DNA of 8,885 bases from a virus (taxonomy: Duplodnaviria > Heunggongvirae > Uroviricota > Caudoviricetes), in the IMG/VR virus record IMGVR_UViG_2609460067_000009; one strand, given 5' to 3'. Under the pieces are notes generated by a model that did no database searches, was not told the origin of the DNA, and saw only the letters and a program-made list of their open reading frames with translations. Positions 1 to 8,885 of this stretch are shown here, one piece after another (within the stretch, counting starts at the first letter, position 1; every line of letters begins with the position of its first letter). Both the position numbers and the translations under genes were made by a program.

Positions 1-48
1 TCCATGCGGTGATTTCCCTGAGTATGTCAGCCATTGAATGCCTCCCGG

Positions 49-345
49 TTACTCGTTCGTGTAAATCACGCCCAGTCGTGCAGCCAGACGTTCCAGTTTT
101 TTCTGTTTGTGGAAGTCAATCAGCCGGTCCATCCCCTGAAGGCGCAGTTGCTCTGTCATGATTTCCACGTCTGCCAGCTCTGCCGCGAGGTCACTTTCGC
201 TGCCCTGTCCGTTCAGGTTGCGGGCGGCACTGGCCGCCAGTTCAGCGGCCTCTTCTGCCAGTTTCAGGGCCTGTGCGTCCGGCCCGAAACGCTGCAGGGC
301 CAGACGGTAGAGGGCGGTGCGGGTGAGTTCGGTGTTTCGTGTCAT
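49..345 (-). CDS. MazG-like all-alpha nucleotide pyrophosphohydrolase domain protein
   Basis: 98-aa ORF. EExxE motif (LAEEAAELAAS) followed by ExxD (LAAELADVEIM), the signature pair of MazG/HisE-type NTP pyrophosphatases. Last gene of the co-directional minus-strand cluster. Assignment is from motif recall, not a search. Confidence 0.5.
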   Translation of the reverse strand: MTRNTELTRTALYRLALQRFGPDAQALKLAEEAAELAASAARNLNGQGSESDLAAELADVEIMTEQLRLQGMDRLIDFHKQKKLERLAARLGVIYTNE

Positions 346-354
346 GCCGCGCCC

Positions 355-627
355 TCAGTGCTTCCGGCTGACGGTGATGTGCAGGCCGCCTTCTGCAGTG
401 GTTTCCATCCGGTACGGCACCTCATGCTCTGCCGTGTGGGTGAGTGTGTTCATCAGTACCTGCAGGGCAGCCTCCTTTCCGTTGGTCGCCACAATGGCCT
501 GTGTGGCCATGCTGATTAGCGCCGTCAGGACGTGCTTCACATCGGTGAGGTCGCGGCATTCACACTCGTTGACATAGTGTTCAACAAGGGTTCGGGTGCG
601 CTGTCGTGCTTCCTGTGGGGTAATCAT
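355..627 (-). CDS. hypothetical phage protein
   Basis: 90-aa ORF. Its start overlaps the stop of the upstream zinc-ribbon gene by 4 bp (ATGA, 624-627), consistent with translational coupling. It ends 10 bp before the next gene. Confidence 0.5.
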   Translation of the reverse strand: MITPQEARQRTRTLVEHYVNECECRDLTDVKHVLTALISMATQAIVATNGKEAALQVLMNTLTHTAEHEVPYRMETTAEGGLHITVSRKH

Positions 628-818
628 TGCGAGTCCTCCCTGTCAGGGCGGGAGAATTCCATGACGGGCACGTCTGCCGAAAAATGCTGGCTGCAGTACG
701 GGCAGACCAGGGTGACGCGTACCGCAGGGATGTGGTATTTACCGGACATCACGGCGATGGCGCTGTGAAAACGCAGGGCTGTTATATCCCTCTCGCACTG
801 AATACATTTAAATATCAT
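624..818 (-). CDS. small zinc-ribbon protein (CxxC...CxxC)
   Basis: 64-aa ORF with two CxxC pairs (CIQC and CPYC, about 30 residues apart). Strong GAGGAG Shine-Dalgarno 9 nt upstream of the ATG (minus strand, 833-828). Confidence 0.55.
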   Translation of the reverse strand: MIFKCIQCERDITALRFHSAIAVMSGKYHIPAVRVTLVCPYCSQHFSADVPVMEFSRPDREDSQ

Positions 819-915
819 GATTTAATTCTCCTCTGTTTCCGGCGTGCAGAAGCCCGCGGCGCTGACGTCGGAATAAAAAAGAAAATGTTTTTATTAAATA
901 ATTAACGTGGTGTGT

Positions 916-1446
916 TTACTGCACATCCTGCTCAAAAGGAATTATTGAAAAATCCTCAATGTCGCTTTTAATGGAAATACCGGGAATATTTTTCACGGCC
1001 TCTTTTTCATTCAGGATAGCGTCTTTATTTATTTCCTCTTTTACACGAATAAAGCGCTCAAGCCCCAGACGTCTCAGTAATTCAATAACATTATCCGCCC
1101 CACGGATACTGACTGATGGCGGACGGTTTCGCCACTGCACCTCGCCGGTGGTGAGGTTAGCGAACTTCACCTTCCCGTTGCCGGTCAGTTCATCACGGTG
1201 TGCCTCACACCATGTCTGAATACCGGACTGCAGTTCGGCCATGCGTTTTTTCAGGCTCTCGGTGAGCGGGGCATAACGTGCGGTGATATCGCCAATGGCG
1301 TCATTCATTTCTGTTTCAGCCCTGACCAGTTCACGTTGTGCGTCACCGAGTAGTCTGATTCCCTCAATGACCTCTTCACGTGTCCCCGGCACCCAGAGTG
1401 CTGCTGCGGCCTTGATACGTTTTGCACCTTTTGTACTTTTTGCCAT
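916..1446 (-). CDS. gam: host-nuclease inhibitor protein Gam (Mu Gam family)
   Basis: 176-aa ORF with blocks I recognise from Mu Gam: N-terminal MAK..KRIK.AAA, ETEMNDAI, WCEA.RDELT, PPSVSIRG, GL.RFIR.K.EINK.AIL and C-terminal EDFSIIPFEQ. GGAG ribosome-binding site upstream. Confidence 0.9.
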   Translation of the reverse strand: MAKSTKGAKRIKAAAALWVPGTREEVIEGIRLLGDAQRELVRAETEMNDAIGDITARYAPLTESLKKRMAELQSGIQTWCEAHRDELTGNGKVKFANLTTGEVQWRNRPPSVSIRGADNVIELLRRLGLERFIRVKEEINKDAILNEKEAVKNIPGISIKSDIEDFSIIPFEQDVQ

Positions 1447-1473
1447 TTTTTATGATTTCTCCAGTTGTGCTGA

Positions 1474-1743
1474 TTACCACAAAGATTCCGGCCACACGAC
1501 GCGACAGCCGTGCAGTTCGAAAACGCCCTGACGGAAATATCCCCTGTGGTCATGTCCGGTATACAGATAACAGGCCTTTCCCTGCTCAAGCATGCGCATG
1601 CAATGCGCACTCCGGGAAACGCGGATGACAGGTTTGTTACCCCTGATGGTGATGCTCTGTACATCCGTGTTCGTCGCCTTAAGCGCCATAATGGCTGACT
1701 GCACTTTGCTGATTTGCTGGTTGATACCTGTGGTGGATTTCAT
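1474..1743 (-). CDS. hypothetical small protein (Kil-equivalent position between B and gam)
   Basis: 89-aa ORF starting 2 nt after the B stop, with an AAAGGGG ribosome-binding site. Contains a Cys/His cluster (C..H..C...H.H...H.C). Function is not recognisable from sequence. Confidence 0.5.
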   Translation of the reverse strand: MKSTTGINQQISKVQSAIMALKATNTDVQSITIRGNKPVIRVSRSAHCMRMLEQGKACYLYTGHDHRGYFRQGVFELHGCRVVWPESLW

Positions 1744-1745
1744 TA

Positions 1746-2912
1746 TTAAACCCCTTTGACAACGTCAGCGTTGACCTGTGGAACCCCGATTTCAGCGGCC
1801 AGATTCATGGCGGCTATTACCAGGTTACTGACGGCCAGCGGATACAGCAGGCTGACCATATTTTTACGGTGACTTCCCGGATTGCTCAGGCGGGCACGTA
1901 TGGCATCCACTGCACCGGCGTCCATAATGTCCGTCAGCTGTTTACCGGCCCGTTGCAGTTTGAACGTCAGAAATTCTTCAAGGTTATTGTCCAGAGGCAG
2001 AAGTTCGACCACCTCACAGCGCTGAACGACTTCACGGACTTCCATATTGCGTTCAGACAGTTTTGTCGCCAGTTCCGGCTGGCCAATCAGCACGATGGAC
2101 AGCAGTTTTTTGAAACCGGACTCCAGCTCAAAAAAGCGTTTGAGGTGTTTCAGTGTCGGAATGGGCAGACTGTGGGCCTCCTCAATCACCAGAACGTGGC
2201 TGAACCCCGCCTGGCTGCTGTCTTTCAGGACGCGATGCAACTGGCGAAAACGGGCGTCCTGACTGCGTCTGATGCTTTCCAGTGGTGCGATGGTACTGAT
2301 AATGGCTTCGGCAATAGCTGCTGCCTTCAGGGTTTTCCCTTTCACATCGTTGTCTTCCATAGCGATGATGTATGGCTCGATAACAATTACCGGCGCATTC
2401 TCGCGGTTGATACGTTCAGTCAGGTCGCGGCGCAGCGTGGATTTACCCGCACCGGACTCACCGATGACGGCCATAAACCCACCATGACGGGCTGTCTGGT
2501 ACAGCGCCTCACGCACGTAGCGAATGTCCGGGGTGGTGAACACATCATCAGAACCCTGCATGGCTTCGTCGGCGAACGGGTCACGGAAAAGACCAAACGC
2601 TTTTTTGGTTGCTGGAAATAACACCTGTTTTTTGAGTAACATATTCTCTTCCTCACTGAGGCTCGTTTTATCTGTGGTACCCGCTGTACGGGGCGTGGCC
2701 GCGCCCTGTACAGCATCAAAACTCTTCGTTGTATCAATCCCCTGACTTTCCAGCCAGGACGCAAGACGCCGGCGCACTTCTCCGGGGCTGGTGCGGGGCC
2801 ACGCGTTATGATTCACAATCTGGGCCAGCGTGGCCTCAGAAACATCGACAGCTCTCGCCACCACCGCCTGTGGAATACGGGCCTCTTTCAGTTGCTGCTT
2901 CAGTACCAGCAT
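1746..2912 (-). CDS. transposition ATPase B (AAA+ / ExeA-TniB-like), N-terminal HTH
   Basis: Walker A GESGAGKST and Walker B VLVIEEAH. N-terminal HTH-like segment (IPQAVVARAVDVSEATLAQIV). Start placed at the ATG at 2912, which is preceded by GAGGAGG overlapping the transposase TGA stop. The ORF-track start at 2951 would overlap the transposase by 29 nt. Confidence 0.85.
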   Translation of the reverse strand: MLVLKQQLKEARIPQAVVARAVDVSEATLAQIVNHNAWPRTSPGEVRRRLASWLESQGIDTTKSFDAVQGAATPRTAGTTDKTSLSEEENMLLKKQVLFPATKKAFGLFRDPFADEAMQGSDDVFTTPDIRYVREALYQTARHGGFMAVIGESGAGKSTLRRDLTERINRENAPVIVIEPYIIAMEDNDVKGKTLKAAAIAEAIISTIAPLESIRRSQDARFRQLHRVLKDSSQAGFSHVLVIEEAHSLPIPTLKHLKRFFELESGFKKLLSIVLIGQPELATKLSERNMEVREVVQRCEVVELLPLDNNLEEFLTFKLQRAGKQLTDIMDAGAVDAIRARLSNPGSHRKNMVSLLYPLAVSNLVIAAMNLAAEIGVPQVNADVVKGV

Positions 2913-2922
2913 GTTTCCCTCC

Positions 2923-4542
2923 TCAGTTGCCGTTAACAATGCTGATAACACTGCTGCGGGCCGGTGTGGTCAGCGTGGCCATGACTTCATCCAGTGCGGC
3001 TTCCGGTACGCCGTCCGGGTACTGTGCCGTTAACTGGCGGTAATGTTCCGGCGTCCAGGTAAGGCCGTCGGCGCTGAACTTATCGCGCAGGGCTTTCGCG
3101 GCCTCCACATGAGTCATGGGACGTTGTTCAGTGCGCGGCCCGCGTACGTCAGAGGCCTGACCACGCTTCGGCATATAGGCCGGAAGTGTGGTGTCGTCGA
3201 TATGTTTATACGGGTCAAGCCGCCCGCCGAACGGCAGCGCCTTCGCCTTGCGTGCGGCGGCTGCATCTGCGGCGTTGTCTGTACCGGTAACCAGCGCTTC
3301 GGTTTCTTTTGCCGCCATCTGTGCCGGGGTTTCCGGCAGGGCTTTGTAACTTTCGCCAAATACCGCCGCGCCTTCAGCAAAGCCAAACTCGTTCTTTCTG
3401 ACCTCTTCGACCAGGAAGAACGTCTCGTGGCCGTCCTCACCGGTCAGAACCACCTGTGCCACATCGCTGCGCCATGGGTTACGGGTAATCATCAGTTTTT
3501 CACCAACCAGTACGCCCGGTACCGTTGATACGTCAAATTCAGTGCCCCGGAACGAGACACGAAGTTTTGGCGTGACTTTGCGGAGTTCTGGTGCCGCCAC
3601 AGCCAGTTCACGACATACCTCAACGGAAGGCGCTTTTTTCAGCTGCTCAGCAGTAATCTTCAGCCAGATATCCGTGCGGGTTTTACCGTGGCGGCTGTGA
3701 ACAGCCGTGGCGTTAAAGTGGCTGCGCCATTTCGCGGCCAGCGCGTTGAGTTCTTCCAGACTGTGAACCGGCCGGAACTTCAGACCCGGCTCCAGCTTGC
3801 GTTCGATAATGTCACGCGCCTTTTCCACCTGTCCGGTGGCGCGGGCGTTATGCGGCTTGTGCGCTATCAGGTCGATGCCCAGTGAGCGGCACATGTTTTT
3901 CGTCATACCCGCGGTGTTTGCCGAGCCGGGGTCGAGATAGAGTATTTTCGGCACGCCGTGCAGCACGTCTGCGCCGCCACGCTCCTGCATGGCGTTGATA
4001 AGCACAGAACACAGGTTCTCACCTGATTCCGCGCCCGTCACATACTCAACGTAAATCCAGCCGCTGGCATGGTCGGTAATCTCGTAACTCCACACGCGGT
4101 CACTGGCGATACGGGCAAGGTTAGCGGGCTTGTTCTTGTAGAACTTCGCGCTGTCCATCACCTGCAGCCCTTTATGTCCATTGCTCAGGTAGTAAAGCGT
4201 GCAGAGTGAGGCGTCAATCTGCCAGACATGATTGGGATGCAGACTGGCCACTTCGGTATGTGGTGCAGGGGCATCCAGTTGTTCCGGGTGCAGGCCATAG
4301 TTACGCAGAGCACGGCTGATGGCATCTTCAGACAACGGGAAAAACTCACTGGTGGTTTCATCTGTTCTGCCTGCGGTGATAAAGCCGTTAGCCCGCAGGG
4401 TTTCCACTGCATCTGCGATGGAATAGAGACGCTTACCGTTCTTGCGGGTGGCCTCACGCAGTGTGGCAGATATCAGCGCGGCTTCGTCGCGGGTCAGGGC
4501 GCTGCGCCCGGCATCGGCGCGTTTTTTGCGTTTATCAGTCAC
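2923..4542 (-). CDS. DDE transposase (transposable-phage A protein, retroviral-integrase-like DD35E core)
   Basis: Large ORF immediately upstream of the AAA+ ATPase. Candidate catalytic residues in VWQIDAS or ITDHASGW, LYLDPGSANT and GQVEKA, with the last two about 36 residues apart. Start is ambiguous: GTG at 4542 overlaps the upstream stop as GTGACTGA and is favoured; the ORF-track start at 4647 is a TTG that would overlap the upstream gene by about 110 nt. Confidence 0.85.
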   Translation of the reverse strand: MTDKRKKRADAGRSALTRDEAALISATLREATRKNGKRLYSIADAVETLRANGFITAGRTDETTSEFFPLSEDAISRALRNYGLHPEQLDAPAPHTEVASLHPNHVWQIDASLCTLYYLSNGHKGLQVMDSAKFYKNKPANLARIASDRVWSYEITDHASGWIYVEYVTGAESGENLCSVLINAMQERGGADVLHGVPKILYLDPGSANTAGMTKNMCRSLGIDLIAHKPHNARATGQVEKARDIIERKLEPGLKFRPVHSLEELNALAAKWRSHFNATAVHSRHGKTRTDIWLKITAEQLKKAPSVEVCRELAVAAPELRKVTPKLRVSFRGTEFDVSTVPGVLVGEKLMITRNPWRSDVAQVVLTGEDGHETFFLVEEVRKNEFGFAEGAAVFGESYKALPETPAQMAAKETEALVTGTDNAADAAAARKAKALPFGGRLDPYKHIDDTTLPAYMPKRGQASDVRGPRTEQRPMTHVEAAKALRDKFSADGLTWTPEHYRQLTAQYPDGVPEAALDEVMATLTTPARSSVISIVNGN

Positions 4543-5401
4543 AGATGCCTGTTGGCTCGTCCGGCAGGTCAAATGTGGAGCGCAGGCTACGCGCTGTGCT
4601 TTCCAGTTGACAGACCAGGCCTGCCATGAAGTCTCTGGGGGTATCAATCATGTTTTCAGCACAATATGCGCACAGCGTCTCAAAAGCGCTGGACAGTCGG
4701 ACGGCGATAGCAGATTCCGCCTCAACCGCTAATGCTGTTACTTCCGCCCGCAGCTTCTTAACCTCCTCATCAGGCTCAGGCGGCTGAATACGGGATTTCT
4801 TCTCCAGTCTGGTGGAGAGTGAATCTATTTTTTCATTTTTGTCGGCGAGTACGCGCTGTTGTGCTGCGTTGGTTTCGCGCGCTTCGCGCAGGGCCTGACG
4901 CAATTCACGTACTGACATGCGATCAACGTCGTCAAGCGTCAGGCCGGCAACTGTGCCGCCGTCGGCCAATTCATCAAGTTCTTCATTATCCAGAACCATC
5001 AGGTCGTACAGTTTGGCTTTCCCCAAAACGCTCAACGTTGAGCGTTTTGTTGGCTCATCACCTTCTCCCAAAAACTTCATACTGGCTTGCATCATGCGGC
5101 GAGCAACTTGTGGTGCAAGTCCGAGTTCATTTTCTAAAATGTTTGTAAAATCACCGTGTGGCTCATTTTCTTTTAAGATGATCAGCCGCTTACCCGCTTC
5201 CAGCATAGATTCAGCACTCTGCGCCATATAAAAACGTGCTTCGTGAACAATGCGATCACGTTCATAAGGCAGTCCATCACCAAACTGCTGCATAATTTCC
5301 ATGCGATGCTGTGTCATAGCGTTCAAATTGACATTGATGTTATCTGACAGCGGAACCTCAACATTCAGTTCAGTGTTAACGGGTGATTTGGTGCGTCCCA
5401 T
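4535..5401 (-). CDS. hypothetical coiled-coil protein (early operon, between the regulators and the transposase)
   Basis: 288-aa ORF with an AAGGAG ribosome-binding site that overlaps the stop of the upstream gene. The central region is rich in charged heptad-like sequence (RELRQALREARETNAAQQRVLADKNEKIDSLSTRLEKK). No catalytic motif recognised. Confidence 0.6.
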   Translation of the reverse strand: MGRTKSPVNTELNVEVPLSDNINVNLNAMTQHRMEIMQQFGDGLPYERDRIVHEARFYMAQSAESMLEAGKRLIILKENEPHGDFTNILENELGLAPQVARRMMQASMKFLGEGDEPTKRSTLSVLGKAKLYDLMVLDNEELDELADGGTVAGLTLDDVDRMSVRELRQALREARETNAAQQRVLADKNEKIDSLSTRLEKKSRIQPPEPDEEVKKLRAEVTALAVEAESAIAVRLSSAFETLCAYCAENMIDTPRDFMAGLVCQLESTARSLRSTFDLPDEPTGICD

Positions 5402-5411
5402 TGATTACTCC

Positions 5412-5720
5412 TTACAAACGACTACCTGAAATAACTCGTTGGTTGATTTCGTTAATACGATCCTGTGCACGCGCCATCTCGTGACTGTGAGCCATGGCGA
5501 TCTGTAGTAACTGGATTCCCGGTGCGAAACGTCCGTTCTCTAATTTCATGGCCAGTCCCTCTTCAATAAGGGTATTAAGTGCTCGATTGATATTCGCCGG
5601 GGACTCCCCCAGGGCTGATGCCAGTTCACCGTTAGAAACACCGTTCAGAGCATGACCGCGTAGAGCTTTGAGTACACGTAGGATGCGGGTCCCAGAACTG
5701 GAAATATTTACTTTACTCAT
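5412..5720 (-). CDS. winged-helix/HTH DNA-binding protein
   Basis: About 102 aa from the ATG at 5720. HTH-like segment (VSNGELASALGESPANINRALNTLIEEGL). The longer ORF-track start at 5783 would overlap the upstream gene and is rejected. Confidence 0.6.
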   Translation of the reverse strand: MSKVNISSSGTRILRVLKALRGHALNGVSNGELASALGESPANINRALNTLIEEGLAMKLENGRFAPGIQLLQIAMAHSHEMARAQDRINEINQRVISGSRL

Positions 5721-5772
5721 GTCACATTTCCATTTTTGCAATATGTGATAACCTGTTGCATATGTGGAAAAT
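5721..5772. promoter_or_regulatory. intergenic region with direct repeats TTGCA(A)TATGTG (putative regulator-binding sites)
   Basis: TTGCAATATGTG at 5736-5747 and TTGCATATGTG at 5757-5767. The 10-mer ATATGTGATA at 5741-5750 recurs exactly at 5998-6007 in the divergent control region. Confidence 0.35.
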
Positions 5773-5961
5773 TTATGCCGCATTTGACGTGGGTTTTAAT
5801 CCCAGTTTTACGGCAATTTCATGGGCTTTGCCGTAACGAGCTTTGGTCTGTCCATTGAGAACACGATAGACCTCATTGCGGCTGTAGCCGTGTTCTTCGG
5901 CCCAGCGGGTAAACGTGATACCACGCTGACGGAAGAGATTTTTAACTTGTTCGGAAGTCAT
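5773..5961 (-). CDS. small HTH DNA-binding protein at the Ner/Cro-equivalent position (Ner-like)
   Basis: 62-aa ORF, first gene of the minus-strand early operon, divergent from the repressor-like gene. Excellent AAGGAGA ribosome-binding site 5 nt upstream. Pattern RG-x-T-F-x-x-W-A-x-E-x-G...IA-x-x-LG resembles the Ner/Nlp family as I recall it. Confidence 0.55.
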   Translation of the reverse strand: MTSEQVKNLFRQRGITFTRWAEEHGYSRNEVYRVLNGQTKARYGKAHEIAVKLGLKPTSNAA

Positions 5962-6047
5962 TGTTGTCTCCTTTGTTGATGCAATGATGTTTGTTTTATA
6001 TGTGATAGATTATGAGAACTATTGTTCTCATTGTCAATGAGGTTTAT
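5962..6047. promoter_or_regulatory. divergent early/repressor control region (overlapping promoters and operator)
   Basis: AT-rich spacer between divergently oriented genes. Contains candidate -35/-10 elements (TTGATG ... TATATG), the ATATGTGATA motif and a perfect 8-4-8 inverted repeat. Confidence 0.45.
6012..6031. repeat. perfect inverted repeat ATGAGAAC-TATT-GTTCTCAT (candidate operator)
   Basis: 8-bp arms are exact reverse complements with a 4-bp spacer. It sits between the divergent promoters and the likely repressor start. Confidence 0.6.
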
Positions 6048-6473
6048 GTGAATTTTGATTCTCTTTGCGCGTCGCGGTTCAAAGCTGAGCGTTCGCGGTT
6101 ATCACTCAAGCAGGCTGAAGTAGCAGCCCTTTGTGGCGTTTCAAGAGAAATGTGGGGGAAATATGAACGAGGGGTTGCTGTTCCCGGAGGTGAGTTACTT
6201 GCAGCCTTTGCAAGAATTGGGGCCAATGTACAGTTCATTCTTACCGGGGAGTCATCAGGTATAACTTTATCACGTGATGAAATGGAGTTACTGCAGCACT
6301 ACCGGCAGGCACCATTACAGGTCAAAGGTTCAGTTTTGTCGGCCTTGACTACTGGCTCCTCCAGAGAACGGGCGGAACAGGTTATTCATGGAGATGTTCT
6401 GGGGAATGTTATCAAAGGTAACGTAACCATAGGAACAGGTGGAATAATGAACAAAAATACCAAGAGAAGATGA
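6048..6473 (+). CDS. XRE-family HTH transcriptional repressor (c-like lysogeny repressor candidate)
   Basis: HTH_XRE-like segment (LSLKQAEVAALCGVSREMWGKYERG). Divergent from the early operon. Start placed at GTG 6048, which has a GAGG ribosome-binding site 5 nt upstream. The in-frame ATG at 6012 lacks a ribosome-binding site and lies inside the palindrome. No S24 peptidase domain is evident. Confidence 0.65.
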   Translation: MNFDSLCASRFKAERSRLSLKQAEVAALCGVSREMWGKYERGVAVPGGELLAAFARIGANVQFILTGESSGITLSRDEMELLQHYRQAPLQVKGSVLSALTTGSSRERAEQVIHGDVLGNVIKGNVTIGTGGIMNKNTKRR

Positions 6474-7456
6474 GTAAAGAGAAGCAAACAGTTAACGGGG
6501 ATGTGGGTAACGTTGTCAGCGGTGATGTTACCATTCATAACTATTCTGCTGACATACTTCCTTCGGCCCAGCAACCAATTTCGTTGCTGCAAAAACGCGA
6601 TTTACACAGATTGATGGATGAATTGGTTGATCTGGGGGAAAGTAAGCGCGAGCTATGGATGACGATCCACACGAAACTTAATACCAAAACAGTTAATGAA
6701 ATGACTGCGGCTGATTATCATGGTGCGGTTGAGATCCTTCAGAGATATGCACAACAGATCCAGAATATGAAGGACTGTAATCTTCTGGTCAGCAAAATAA
6801 TGGCGCTTACTGACCCTGGGTATCGTCTTGACCGTGACAGATACTGTCTGAAGCATTTCGGTACAACCCATCTTAAAGGCCTAGACAAAGAGCAGTTGCA
6901 GGCTGTGTTTGGTTATTTTGATGATCTGCTGAATATTCGTGATGAGAGTAAAACTCTATCACCTCCATCGGAAAGCGGTGCAAAATCAGTCGCAACTGTA
7001 CCAACCAGAAGCCGGAAGCCTCATGTAGTAGTGTTGGGGGGAGTGTTAGTTCTTGTAGCAATATTTTTCGTGGGAATGATTGTGTTCGCTGGTAAATGGG
7101 GAAATGCCAAAGCAGTAGCTTCTACTGAAACCAGCGTTTTTAACATTAAAACCAACGATAAAATAATAGAAGATTCCATCCCCGCACTGCGCAGCATGTT
7201 TCCAGGGTTAAATAAGTACTCAGATGATTTCCATTCGGTTTCAAGCTACAAGCAAAAAACGGGCTGGCATACCCTTAAATTTACTGTATCAGCAAAGGCA
7301 TCCGTCCCCGAAAATTATAGTGTTAAGGGCAAGGTTTGTTACATTAACATAAGCCCTGATGGTAGTTATGCTCGGGTTTTGACTGCTCCATGTCGTTCAC
7401 TGCTACTTGATCAGCAAAGCACTCCTGACAGTAAATACCGTTTTATTCTTAAATAG
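6470..7456 (+). CDS. single-pass membrane protein, unknown function (cargo gene 1 of repressor operon)
   Basis: 328-aa ORF whose ATG overlaps the repressor stop (ATGA at 6470-6473). One strongly hydrophobic segment (VVVLGGVLVLVAIFFVGMIVFAG) is preceded by basic residues (TRSRKPH). About 185 aa lie before it and about 120 aa after it, with two Cys in the latter. AT-rich codon usage unlike the transposition genes. Confidence 0.65.
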   Translation: MSKEKQTVNGDVGNVVSGDVTIHNYSADILPSAQQPISLLQKRDLHRLMDELVDLGESKRELWMTIHTKLNTKTVNEMTAADYHGAVEILQRYAQQIQNMKDCNLLVSKIMALTDPGYRLDRDRYCLKHFGTTHLKGLDKEQLQAVFGYFDDLLNIRDESKTLSPPSESGAKSVATVPTRSRKPHVVVLGGVLVLVAIFFVGMIVFAGKWGNAKAVASTETSVFNIKTNDKIIEDSIPALRSMFPGLNKYSDDFHSVSSYKQKTGWHTLKFTVSAKASVPENYSVKGKVCYINISPDGSYARVLTAPCRSLLLDQQSTPDSKYRFILK

Positions 7457-7546
7457 AAAATAACAGCTGAATTACCATGGGATCAGAAAAAAGACAAAGG
7501 CGGCATCATGCTGCGTTCTGAAATTTTAATGTAAAAGGTGATGAAC

Positions 7547-8128
7547 ATGGCAGGGATTCAGGTTATCGCAGGAAGTTTTCCTAAAGGGTGGGCAAGCATG
7601 GGGTTCGGTACCATCGTGTTTGCCAAAAAACCAAAACAAGGCTTTCCTGAAAATATTGTATTAAATCTGAAAGAAGAGCTTTTATCGATTGAACTTGCGG
7701 ATAGTGAAGAGGAAAGCCGTATAGGTAAGGCGGCAGGCGCAGGTTTGCTTGGTGGATTAATCTTTGGTGGTGCAGGGTTGGTCATTGGAGGTTTGCTTGG
7801 TGCGGCGGACAAGACGAAAAAAACTATCACTTTTAAGGCAATGTTTACGGGAAATAGGTTACTTCTGGCTAAAACAGATTCAAAAACTTTTGTAAAACTT
7901 CAGTCAATTGCTGCTGATAATGCCCATAACGCATCTGTAATCAACATGAAGCAAACTAACAGGGGCGATGTTTCTTCTCGTAAACAACTAACAGAAAATC
8001 CACAGCAGCAAGACTTACCTGCGCCCGCTACAACAGTAAAAATGACTGCCAAAGATAAGTTAGAATCGGCTCTTGGGCTGGGAATCATCGTTATAGCTGT
8101 TTGGGCAATAATACACTTCTTTTTTTAG
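7547..8128 (+). CDS. glycine-zipper membrane protein, unknown function (cargo gene 2)
   Basis: About 193 aa from the ATG at 7547 (AGGTG ribosome-binding site 6 nt upstream; the ORF-track start at 7538 is a GTG). Glycine-zipper hydrophobic segment GAGLLGGLIFGGAGLVIGGLLG with GxxxG repeats, plus a C-terminal hydrophobic helix (LGLGIIVIAVWAIIHFFF). Confidence 0.6.
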   Translation: MAGIQVIAGSFPKGWASMGFGTIVFAKKPKQGFPENIVLNLKEELLSIELADSEEESRIGKAAGAGLLGGLIFGGAGLVIGGLLGAADKTKKTITFKAMFTGNRLLLAKTDSKTFVKLQSIAADNAHNASVINMKQTNRGDVSSRKQLTENPQQQDLPAPATTVKMTAKDKLESALGLGIIVIAVWAIIHFFF

Positions 8129-8130
8129 TG

Positions 8131-8154
8131 CAGCCCTTCAGGGCTGTTTCTGTT
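8131..8154 (+). terminator. rho-independent terminator (hairpin plus T-tract)
   Basis: CAGCCC-TTCA-GGGCTG stem-loop immediately followed by TTTCTGTT, 3 nt after the stop of the glycine-zipper gene. Confidence 0.5.
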
Positions 8155-8165
8155 CAGGAGGTATC

Positions 8166-8642
8166 TTAAGGATTATCCGGGGCGTTTTCCTGTTTGCCGT
8201 ACTTCGGAGACGAACAACATTCTGTTGGCTGACCGGTGAGTTTACGTAACTCCTTCATGAGCAGCTCCTGATCGTAAACTGTCATCAGTGCCGCAATGGT
8301 GGCATGCAGTGCATCGGGCAGTATCCAGGGTTGCCGGCCCGTGGGGCATATAACATCCAGCAGCTCATTCGTCCGACAGATACGCTCCTCGCCGTATGAC
8401 AACAGGCCCTGTCCCGTGTATTCCTCCAGCCTGATCACTGTGCCACCCCGTGGCTTCTGCCAGGTCGTCAGATCTTCGCCATTCATACGGCGCTCATTCT
8501 CCACGTCAGCAGCATCGACAATGACGCTGTTTCCGAGTTCCTGTTTCACCATCTCTTCTATCCGCGCCAGTACGTAACTTTTACCGCTGCCCACAGGACC
8601 GGACACAGTGACAGTGATGACCGGATTCAGTGTGTGCGTCAT
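8166..8642 (-). CDS. small P-loop NTPase (Walker A), unknown function
   Basis: 158-aa ORF with a GAGGAG ribosome-binding site 8 nt upstream. Walker A GPVGSGKS near the N-terminus and a possible Walker B VIVDAAD. Convergent with the cargo operon; GC-richer than the cargo genes. Confidence 0.6.
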   Translation of the reverse strand: MTHTLNPVITVTVSGPVGSGKSYVLARIEEMVKQELGNSVIVDAADVENERRMNGEDLTTWQKPRGGTVIRLEEYTGQGLLSYGEERICRTNELLDVICPTGRQPWILPDALHATIAALMTVYDQELLMKELRKLTGQPTECCSSPKYGKQENAPDNP

Positions 8643-8772
8643 ATCGTATTCTCCTCTGTGAATAATTCATCGTTTATCCTGCACATCCCGTATCCCCGGC
8701 TCTCTTAACGCGCTTTAAAATCCTTCGCGCCCTGTATTTGTGATGCTGTCTCCACCAGATAAGGAGACACAC

Positions 8773-8885
8773 ATGAAAAACCTGAAAAAATTCATTCCCC
8801 CTGTTAAAAAACCTCGCCTCAGCGGCTGGCTGCTGACCTCAGTGCTGTTGCTGGGCACCATCGCTCTGGTCTCACCACAGCAGCT
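8773..8885 (+). CDS. partial CDS (5' end only): protein with N-terminal signal-anchor or signal peptide
   Basis: AAGGAGA ribosome-binding site 6 nt upstream of the ATG. Basic N-terminus (MKNLKKFIPPVKKPR) followed by a hydrophobic stretch (LSGWLLTSVLLLGTIALV). Runs off the window edge. Confidence 0.4.
   Translation, partial: MKNLKKFIPPVKKPRLSGWLLTSVLLLGTIALVSPQQ

Follow-up and report, generated by a model that had tools for sequence, protein, structure and literature searches.

The AT-rich island of a BcepMu-like transposable prophage is probably an exchangeable lysogeny module

In phage lambda, two genes placed after the repressor gene cI act in the lysogen, one of them as a membrane protein, and the immunity region is more AT-rich than the structural arm. 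The definition of morons and, for Mu-like phages, the coincidence of variable regions with valleys of guanine-plus-cytosine (GC) content have been set out previously (PMC3594210, PMC4378225), and the KS10 authors reported significantly lower GC in genes 11 and 12, the two that follow the repressor, which they read as recent acquisition (PMC2628397). Here we analyse an 8,885-nucleotide stretch of viral DNA (IMG/VR record IMGVR_UViG_2609460067_000009, hereafter the window, one strand), in which an AT-rich island holds a lysogeny control region and the genes of two predicted membrane proteins, here named after their open reading frames (ORFs) ORF328 and ORF193. An earlier note, made by eye, had taken the AT-rich composition of 5700-8130 as the signature of horizontally acquired morons. 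Our analysis suggests that a BcepMu-like transposable prophage probably carries the island as its exchangeable lysogeny/immunity module, and that the low GC stems from a separate evolutionary history, a separate selective regime, or both.

The cI-rexA-rexB region of lambda may serve as the closest functional analogy. The two share divergent promoters and operators, a repressor placed on one transcript with two further genes, and exchange as a cassette. Unlike in lambda, the genes of the window have no similarity to RexA or RexB and belong to no PADLOC family, the phage is a transposable Mu-like myovirus, and the first gene downstream of the repressor is conserved with it across genera and shares a motif with it. 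Closer in layout are BcepMu (gp16 / gp17-gp18-gp19) and KS10 (gp14 / gp13-gp12-gp11), which present the same slot and the same order up to the holin: a ner-like gene divergent from the repressor, a membrane or hypothetical protein, another gene, and then the holin. In BcepMu the gp17 stop codon overlaps the gp18 start, as in the window, and in both phages the repressor tails and partner N-termini carry a related G-x-V-G motif. Neither, however, has the fused periplasmic domain of ORF328, and BcepMu lacks a GC dip. Profile comparison with ORF328 gave no significant match for BcepMu gp18, gp19 or KS10 gp11, and KS10 gp12 was weakly collinear (E=0.0026, 129 columns); homology to the Burkholderia phages therefore rests on position, architecture and a short motif, not on statistics. 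With morons and the regions of genomic plasticity of Pseudomonas Mu-like phages (PMC3594210, PMC4378225) the island shares variable genes in a fixed slot, a GC valley and presumed expression from the prophage, and ORF193 fits by its distribution, but no autonomous promoter was detected, and ORF328 and the repressor are conserved components of the module.

Prophages matching the window occur in 645 of 5,426 complete E. coli genomes; of the 5,426, 640 carry its A/B backbone (1746-4500), 474 of them at ≥99% identity. Identity to phage PhiKM, whose record is classified as Bcepmuvirus, is 95.8%, and in strain AR_0015 the prophage adjoins grxA. According to the RefSeq/GenBank annotation of PhiKM and of the best-matching complete prophage (L001), the features of the BcepMu-like class are present: a DDE (rve) transposase, an AAA/ExeA-like B protein, Gam and Mor. 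On the minus strand, and inverted with respect to Mu, the early operon (ner-like gene, HTH_IclR, DUF3102, DDE transposase A, ExeA-like ATPase B, gam) runs leftwards; the lysis and head genes lie beyond the repressor slot, and the gene order is that of BcepMu. The repressor slot thus has the early operon on its left and the holin, lysis and head genes on its right, and the island is internal to the phage, neither at a phage end nor in host DNA. An origin as host DNA or as an insertion sequence or transposon was considered and rejected, as phage genes flank the island on both sides, no mobility gene is present and the slot is filled in all relatives.

The compositional contrast that had been claimed by eye was borne out by measurement. 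GC is 0.554 over 1-4900, 0.441 over 4901-8130 and 0.528 over 8131-8885, and a maximum-likelihood two-changepoint fit placed steps at 4970 and 8130, beating a single composition by 53 log-likelihood units. Within the interval first proposed, 5700-8130, GC is 0.429 (0.43, with 0.55 on its left and 0.53 on its right), and it differs from the remainder with a chi-square of 89.6 (p=2.9e-21); for 4971-8130 the corresponding values are 104 and p=2e-24. The proposed right edge, 8130, coincides exactly with the changepoint, but the left edge had been set too far in, since low GC begins about 730 bp further left, at ~4970, within the DUF3102 gene. The AT-rich runs quoted in the earlier note were found at 7443-7462 and 7521-7541, in the spacer region between ORF328 and ORF193, and the P-loop gene beyond 8166 is indeed less AT-rich (GC 0.545). 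The island has two tiers, a shallow one at 4970-6013 (GC ~0.47) and a deep one at 6014-8130 (GC ~0.43), and it is the sole sustained stretch below 0.47 GC across 23 kb of L001.

Codon usage follows the same pattern. GC at third codon positions (GC3) is 0.40 in the repressor gene, 0.40 in ORF328 and 0.35 in ORF193, against 0.64 in transposase A, 0.59 in B/ExeA and 0.61 in the P-loop gene; overall GC is 0.42-0.43 for ORF328 and ORF193 (0.42 for the latter) and 0.46 for the repressor, compared with 0.54-0.58 in the neighbouring A, B and P-loop genes. The six genes of the island have a GC of 0.41 at 4-fold degenerate sites, where 22 backbone genes from this prophage reach 0.68 and 14 host genes 0.64, and because GC falls from 0.68 to 0.41 at such sites the effect lies at synonymous positions and does not come from amino-acid composition. 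Island and backbone genes differ in GC3 (Mann-Whitney, p=1e-5) and in host-referenced codon adaptation (p=0.017), a measure of typicality and not of adaptation to highly expressed genes, for which 14 flanking and K-12 host genes served as reference, with leave-one-out for the host genes themselves. The lowest adaptation values belong to the repressor, ORF328 and ORF193 (0.52-0.59; backbone mean 0.67). AGA and ATA codons are enriched in all three, and rare codons are frequent (AGA 10.5 per 1000 against 1.0 in host genes, ATA 12.2 against 4.5); AAA and AAT are also enriched. The segment with the two membrane-protein genes, 6470-8128 (GC 0.423), therefore differs clearly from its flanks in both GC and codon usage, and the absence of such a difference is what the earlier note had named as grounds for giving up its reading.

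Low GC persists in relatives of the module. In a comparison of nine loci, the repressor, ORF328 and third genes have GC3 values of 0.29-0.51 and the A, B, holin and SLT genes values of 0.57-0.79, and a strong GC dip occurs in 9/9 tabulated loci with full-length ORF328, Serratia phages with 60%-GC backbones among them. In two Serratia marcescens prophages the backbone GC3 is 0.71-0.80 and that of the repressor and ORF328 0.40-0.45, although ORF328 there is only 51-53% identical to that of the window; a distant prophage, L020, has the same low-GC pattern. Since low GC persists in diverged homologs and on GC-rich Serratia backbones, it is a long-standing property of the module and not the mark of a recent gain by this phage, and the enterobacterial form of the repressor module is stably and strongly AT-rich. 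The data are equally compatible with selection (H-NS binding, expression limitation) and with continual module exchange among phages of different hosts.

Comparison with other prophages shows the island to be mosaic. Against the JJ1887/PhiKM type, identity is 99.95% up to 4550 (over 507-4550 for JJ1887 and 1-4550 for PhiKM) and 81.7% over 4597-6013; there is no homology over 6014-8177, and identity is 96% over 8178-8885. The slot in that type contains a 118-residue helix-turn-helix (HTH) repressor, a Dam methylase and small ORFs. Against WS3294A, identity is 99.3% over 2168-4550 and 92% over 4547-7467, after which homology ends and a different gene pair follows. By these breakpoints the island falls into roughly three exchange units, one of early-control alleles, one made up of the repressor and ORF328, and one holding the third gene. 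At least three types of repressor occupy the slot (XRE of 140/153 residues, HTH of 118 and CI of 121). The whole repressor-cargo block (5962-8165, ≥80% covered) occurs in only 97 E. coli genomes, some 465 genomes sharing just ~5963-6013 of that query, and the cassette at 6014-8177 had no match among 50,697 phage and 72,556 plasmid records searched in sensitive mode. Alternative occupants of the slot are also below their backbone in GC (0.45-0.48 against 0.55-0.57).

The left part of the island carries the control genes. The shallow tier (4970-6013, minus strand) consists of the 5' half of the DUF3102 gene (ORF 4535-5401, minus strand), the only part of that gene within the island, together with an HTH_IclR-type regulator gene (5412-5720 in RefSeq, longest ORF to 5783, minus strand) and a ner-like small HTH gene of 62 codons (5773-5961, minus strand), the latter two assigned by Pfam and PHROG. 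The 123-residue longest ORF of the HTH_IclR regulator is probably over-extended, RefSeq and the PHROG profile favouring the 102-residue form that starts at 5720. Between the ner-like gene and the repressor lies a divergent control region (5962-6047), an 86-bp spacer of 30% GC. A sigma-70-like scan placed the leftward early promoter there, with -35 TTGACA at 6037-6032, a 17-nt spacer and -10 CATAAT at 6014-6009 (11/12 consensus match). It is overlapped by an inverted repeat (6005-6019 / 6024-6038), a candidate operator, and the breakpoint with heteroimmune relatives falls at 6013. The layout is that of an immunity region, with an HTH_3/HTH_31 repressor on the plus strand divergent from a ner-type HTH gene on the minus strand and with promoter and inverted repeat between them.

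The XRE-family repressor (HTH_3/HTH_31; Pfam and PHROG hits, with generic HTH models as its only PADLOC matches) occupies 6012-6473 on the plus strand. RefSeq starts it at ATG 6012 (153 residues), a codon without a Shine-Dalgarno sequence that sits beneath the -10 box of the divergent early promoter, and the promoter falls inside the longer ORF. The alternative GTG 6048 (140-141 residues) is preceded by a GAGG Shine-Dalgarno, and orthologs of 140-141 residues begin at the equivalent position; it is the more likely start. The C-terminal tail of the protein carries the motif QVIHGDVLGNVIKGNVTIG and then ends in KNTKRR.

ORF328 (6470-7456, plus strand) follows directly, its ATG overlapping the TGA of the repressor (ATGA, 4 nt). 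In the protein, the N-terminal motif GDVGNVVSGDVTI is followed by a helical, Flk_N-like cytoplasmic domain (~31-158), a single transmembrane helix (186-204, N-in/C-out) and a periplasmic alpha/beta domain (221-328) with two invariant cysteines; both domains are confident in the AlphaFold 2 (AF2) model, with a predicted local distance difference test (pLDDT) score mostly of 80-96. Residues 28-152 align by BLASTP with 18-146 of E. coli Flk (25% identity, E=1e-5, 133 columns), and homologs carry the precomputed label Flk_N (PF27202), marked weak for some members; a Pfam copy without the Flk_N model gave nothing above threshold for ORF328 or ORF193, and ORF328 has PHROG hits. Flk itself is a membrane-anchored inhibitor of the flagellar secretion switch (PMC13344023). 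ORF328 resembles it in its Flk_N homology but, unlike Flk, continues past the transmembrane helix into a periplasmic domain (~108-120 residues), has an N-terminal G-D-V-G motif, and is phage-encoded and linked to a repressor. A Flk-type C-terminal anchor with no periplasmic domain behind it was found instead in short relatives (P0039, P0048 and others).

When 1.84 billion representatives were searched with a profile, only 114 relatives of ORF328 emerged, among which its domains also occur alone, the Flk_N-like module in tail-anchored proteins of ~190-270 residues and the C-terminal domain in small lipoproteins. In two distant prophages, L020 and L021, the repressor is followed by a Flk_N-like protein and then by a lipoprotein with the C-terminal domain of ORF328 (the separate genes lie at 4001-5544 and 4001-5165, respectively). 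ORF328 is thus a fusion of two neighbouring genes that relatives keep apart, which argues that its two parts act together across the inner membrane.

The association of ORF328 with a repressor was found wherever it was examined. A full-length homolog follows an XRE repressor in 8/8 other annotated loci, from E. coli, Yersinia, Serratia, a locus whose homolog is named in Salmonella, and further assemblies. Such homologs, down to 51% identity, overlap the repressor stop codon in the same slot, by the same 4 nt in Yersinia, in two Serratia loci and in three others. More distant Flk_N-like relatives follow a repressor in four more Mu-like loci and in one P2-like prophage, L026, where the Flk_N-like membrane protein lies downstream of an HTH repressor (2182-3810) with the P2-like genes GPA, Ogr/Delta, GpD and GpU nearby; the pairing therefore extends beyond Mu-like phages. 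In all, ORF328 or a shorter Flk_N-like relative follows a repressor in 14/14 contexts examined, which were gathered by exact look-ups, a scan of species-representative genomes having given one locus.

Set against these results, the supposition that the AT-rich block is made up of horizontally acquired morons stood only in part. The deep tier coincides with a recombination cassette whose breakpoints lie at 6013 and ~8177, and ORF193 is moron-like. The description does not extend to ORF328 or to the core control genes: the repressor, ner-like and HTH_IclR genes, half of the DUF3102 gene and the operator region together take up about one third of the island. Morons are absent or replaced in close relatives, whereas ORF328 always accompanies the XRE repressor and does not behave as an independent moron. 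Nor do the membrane-protein genes look like independent cargo units: a consensus scan, which is insensitive, predicted no sigma-70-like promoter upstream of ORF328 or in the spacer before ORF193, and one terminator serves the operon.

We consider it likely, for these reasons, that the island is an exchangeable lysogeny/immunity module, and it may work as follows. The strong promoter in the 30%-GC divergent region would drive the early operon leftwards, and the repressor would shut it through the inverted repeat. The rightward operon would comprise the XRE repressor, ORF328 as a membrane partner coupled to it in translation, and the variable membrane protein ORF193, ending at 8130-8147, and would be the part expressed in the lysogen, given the transcript shared with the repressor. 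ORF328 and ORF193 would then act in the lysogen envelope, most likely in superinfection exclusion or in an envelope-linked control of the repressor. The module would circulate by recombination among enterobacterial BcepMu-like phages and would not represent a recent, one-off gain of cargo.

Several observations weigh against the lysogeny-module interpretation. For the rightward operon the scan gave no promoter above its consensus threshold. Searches bearing on the function of the membrane proteins gave no lead: neither falls into a PADLOC family (ORF193 had no defence-system match and ORF328 a sub-threshold one, E=0.014), and ORF328 had no significant match among solved or viral predicted structures. 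The left GC changepoint at 4970 is off the left mosaic junction at ~4550-4597, so that units of composition and of recombination agree only approximately there. Finally, the dip is modest in L021 and KS10, whose offset is smaller, and almost absent from BcepMu, where gp17 and gp18 have a GC of 0.59-0.60 against 0.60-0.66; strong AT-richness therefore characterises the module in its enterobacterial form and not the family as a whole.

It is possible, if on balance doubtful, that AT-richness is actively kept by selection, through H-NS-type silencing, bent DNA for promoter control, or rare codons that limit the production of potentially toxic membrane proteins. Such selection would be compatible with a lysogeny module and would cause the persistence of its composition. 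It would account for the maintenance of GC3 at ~0.40-0.45 in Serratia phages and in homologs of 51-53% identity, for the smaller offset also seen in KS10 and L021, and for the lowest codon adaptation falling in the repressor and both membrane proteins beside a control region of 30% GC; targeting of AT-rich prophage DNA by H-NS is moreover established (for example PMC13502914). On the other hand, BcepMu shows no dip, and frequent exchange of modules among phages of different hosts gives the same pattern.

The textbook interpretation (PMC3594210, PMC4378225), that the whole island consists of foreign morons recently taken from a donor of low GC, with a composition that has yet to drift towards the local one, we regard as unlikely. 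The GC step, the atypical codon usage and the rare AGA and ATA codons speak for it, and the cassette is missing both from most prophages that share the backbone and from the phage and plasmid records searched. Yet the repressor, the operator region and core early genes are part of the island; in all 14 contexts examined a repressor accompanies ORF328 or its relative, BcepMu and KS10 have the same layout, and ORF328 has no promoter-terminator unit of its own; low GC3 is common to homologs down to 51-53% identity; and no low-GC donor was found, all homologs lying in the same phage slot. It is hardly credible that the low GC merely follows from the amino acids used (in membrane or Lys/Asn/Ile-rich proteins) or from chance fluctuation, without evolutionary meaning. 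Although two of the genes encode membrane proteins and AAA and AAT are enriched, the fall at 4-fold sites rules out an artefact of amino-acid composition, the chi-square test gives p=3e-21, and the gene of the cytoplasmic repressor is just as AT-rich, as are the intergenic regions.

A further observation concerns the repressor and its partner. The last ~40 residues of the repressor resemble the first ~45 of the partner protein; in the window the segments are QVIHGDVLGNVIKGNVTI and QTVNGDVGNVVSGDVTI, and the likeness spans 6380-6440 and 6485-6540. In nine pairs (the window, L007 and L020-L026, including BcepMu gp17/gp18, KS10 gp13/gp12 and the P2-like prophage) it reached z values of 3.7-8.0 against shuffled tails, and cognate pairs scored 408 against 293 +/- 27 for permuted pairings (p ~2e-4), although the pairs from the window and from Serratia are not independent of each other and much of the signal comes from a general, shared motif. 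The clearest lineage-specific versions of tail and N-terminus are those of L020 and KS10. We treat the similarity as a lead, not a result.

This lead allows a more specific proposal, which we put forward with little confidence. The repressor and the Flk_N-like membrane protein would form a two-part lysogeny switch, previously undescribed, in BcepMu-like and at least one P2-like phage, in which the N-terminus of the partner mimics the repressor tail to bind, sequester, stabilise or compete with it and so couples envelope or periplasmic signals to prophage maintenance or induction, AT-richness being kept by selection. The membrane protein would span the inner membrane as a fusion, as in the window, or together with a partner lipoprotein. 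The proposal draws on the linkage in 14/14 contexts, the gene-fusion (Rosetta-stone) evidence and the likeness of tail and N-terminus, all of it circumstantial.

ORF193 differs from its neighbour in its distribution. It follows an AT-rich spacer of 90 nt (7457-7546; 36% GC over 7457-7537), at which relatives swap the third gene, and runs from 7547 to 8128 on the plus strand, or from an upstream GTG at 7538 as a protein of 196 residues. The product is labelled PF27000 PH_gly_zipper and phrog_12025 and has a PH-like beta domain split by a glycine-zipper hydrophobic segment (66-84), followed by a C-terminal transmembrane helix (175-193); the structure model has a mean pLDDT of 36, and only its secondary-structure pattern was used. 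In WS3294A (L004) and CUVET (L005) other genes stand in its place directly after ORF328. CUVET diverges after 7633, and the CUVET21-PYO5 prophage (L005 5583-5669, equivalent to 7547-7633 of the window) keeps approximately the first 87 nt of ORF193, a remnant that points to loss or replacement of the gene in that lineage. Morganella homologs are 97% identical in ORF193 against ~75% in ORF328, and a Citrobacter homolog of ORF193 follows a CI-type repressor in a locus without ORF328. By these comparisons ORF193 appears to be the sole truly moron-like, independently mobile gene of the island.

The right GC step coincides with an intrinsic terminator on the plus strand (8130-8147; GCAGCCC-TTCA-GGGCTGT with a T-rich tail), the only terminator-like site in 5600-8885, which closes the whole rightward operon. 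Beyond it lies the P-loop ATPase gene (8166-8642, minus strand), annotated as 'ABC transporter ATPase' and assigned to phrog_3787. Homology to other prophages resumes at ~8177, and the gene is cut at its 3' end by the right cassette junction, so that its product has 158 residues against 242 in relatives and matches positions 1-157 of 242 of phrog_3787; the JJ1887 homolog measures 729 bp.

Elsewhere in the window, a second, short GC dip lies at 801-1100 (GC 0.38), at the 3' end of gam and the spacer at 819-915 (GC 0.41), and PhiKM carries a small ORF annotated on the opposite strand at the equivalent position (800-1100). No RNA family was found in the window by Rfam at gathering thresholds. At 4545/4546 the window is without 209 bp that the best-matching E. 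coli prophages have (L001 16546-16754): the match is split there, with 209 extra bases in the record, in 25/25 of the best full-window hits and in 8/8 listed junction hits. The loss takes the start codon and ~49 N-terminal codons of the transposase and the 3' end of the DUF3102 gene. To the left of the junction identity to PhiKM/JJ1887 is 99.95%, and to the right identity to AR_0015 is 100%; the window represents either a defective recombinant prophage or an assembly artefact at this point.

The phenomenon as a whole is ordinary phage mosaicism, of a well-known kind (PMC3594210, PMC4378225). Slots of low GC that recombine immunity and accessory genes are a well-known property of temperate phages, and the compositional feature itself matters little. 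GC deviation alone over-calls 'cargo', for here it also marks a repressor and its conserved partner protein. The prophage family is common in clinical E. coli, occurring in ~12% of complete genomes, ST131-type strains included, and its variable slot would be a site of membrane proteins expressed in the lysogen, candidates for superinfection exclusion or for effects on host phenotype. The pair of repressor and Flk_N-like partner is the only part that might hold something new, and the partner, with its periplasmic domain and repressor-tail motif, is the one element that could repay experiments.

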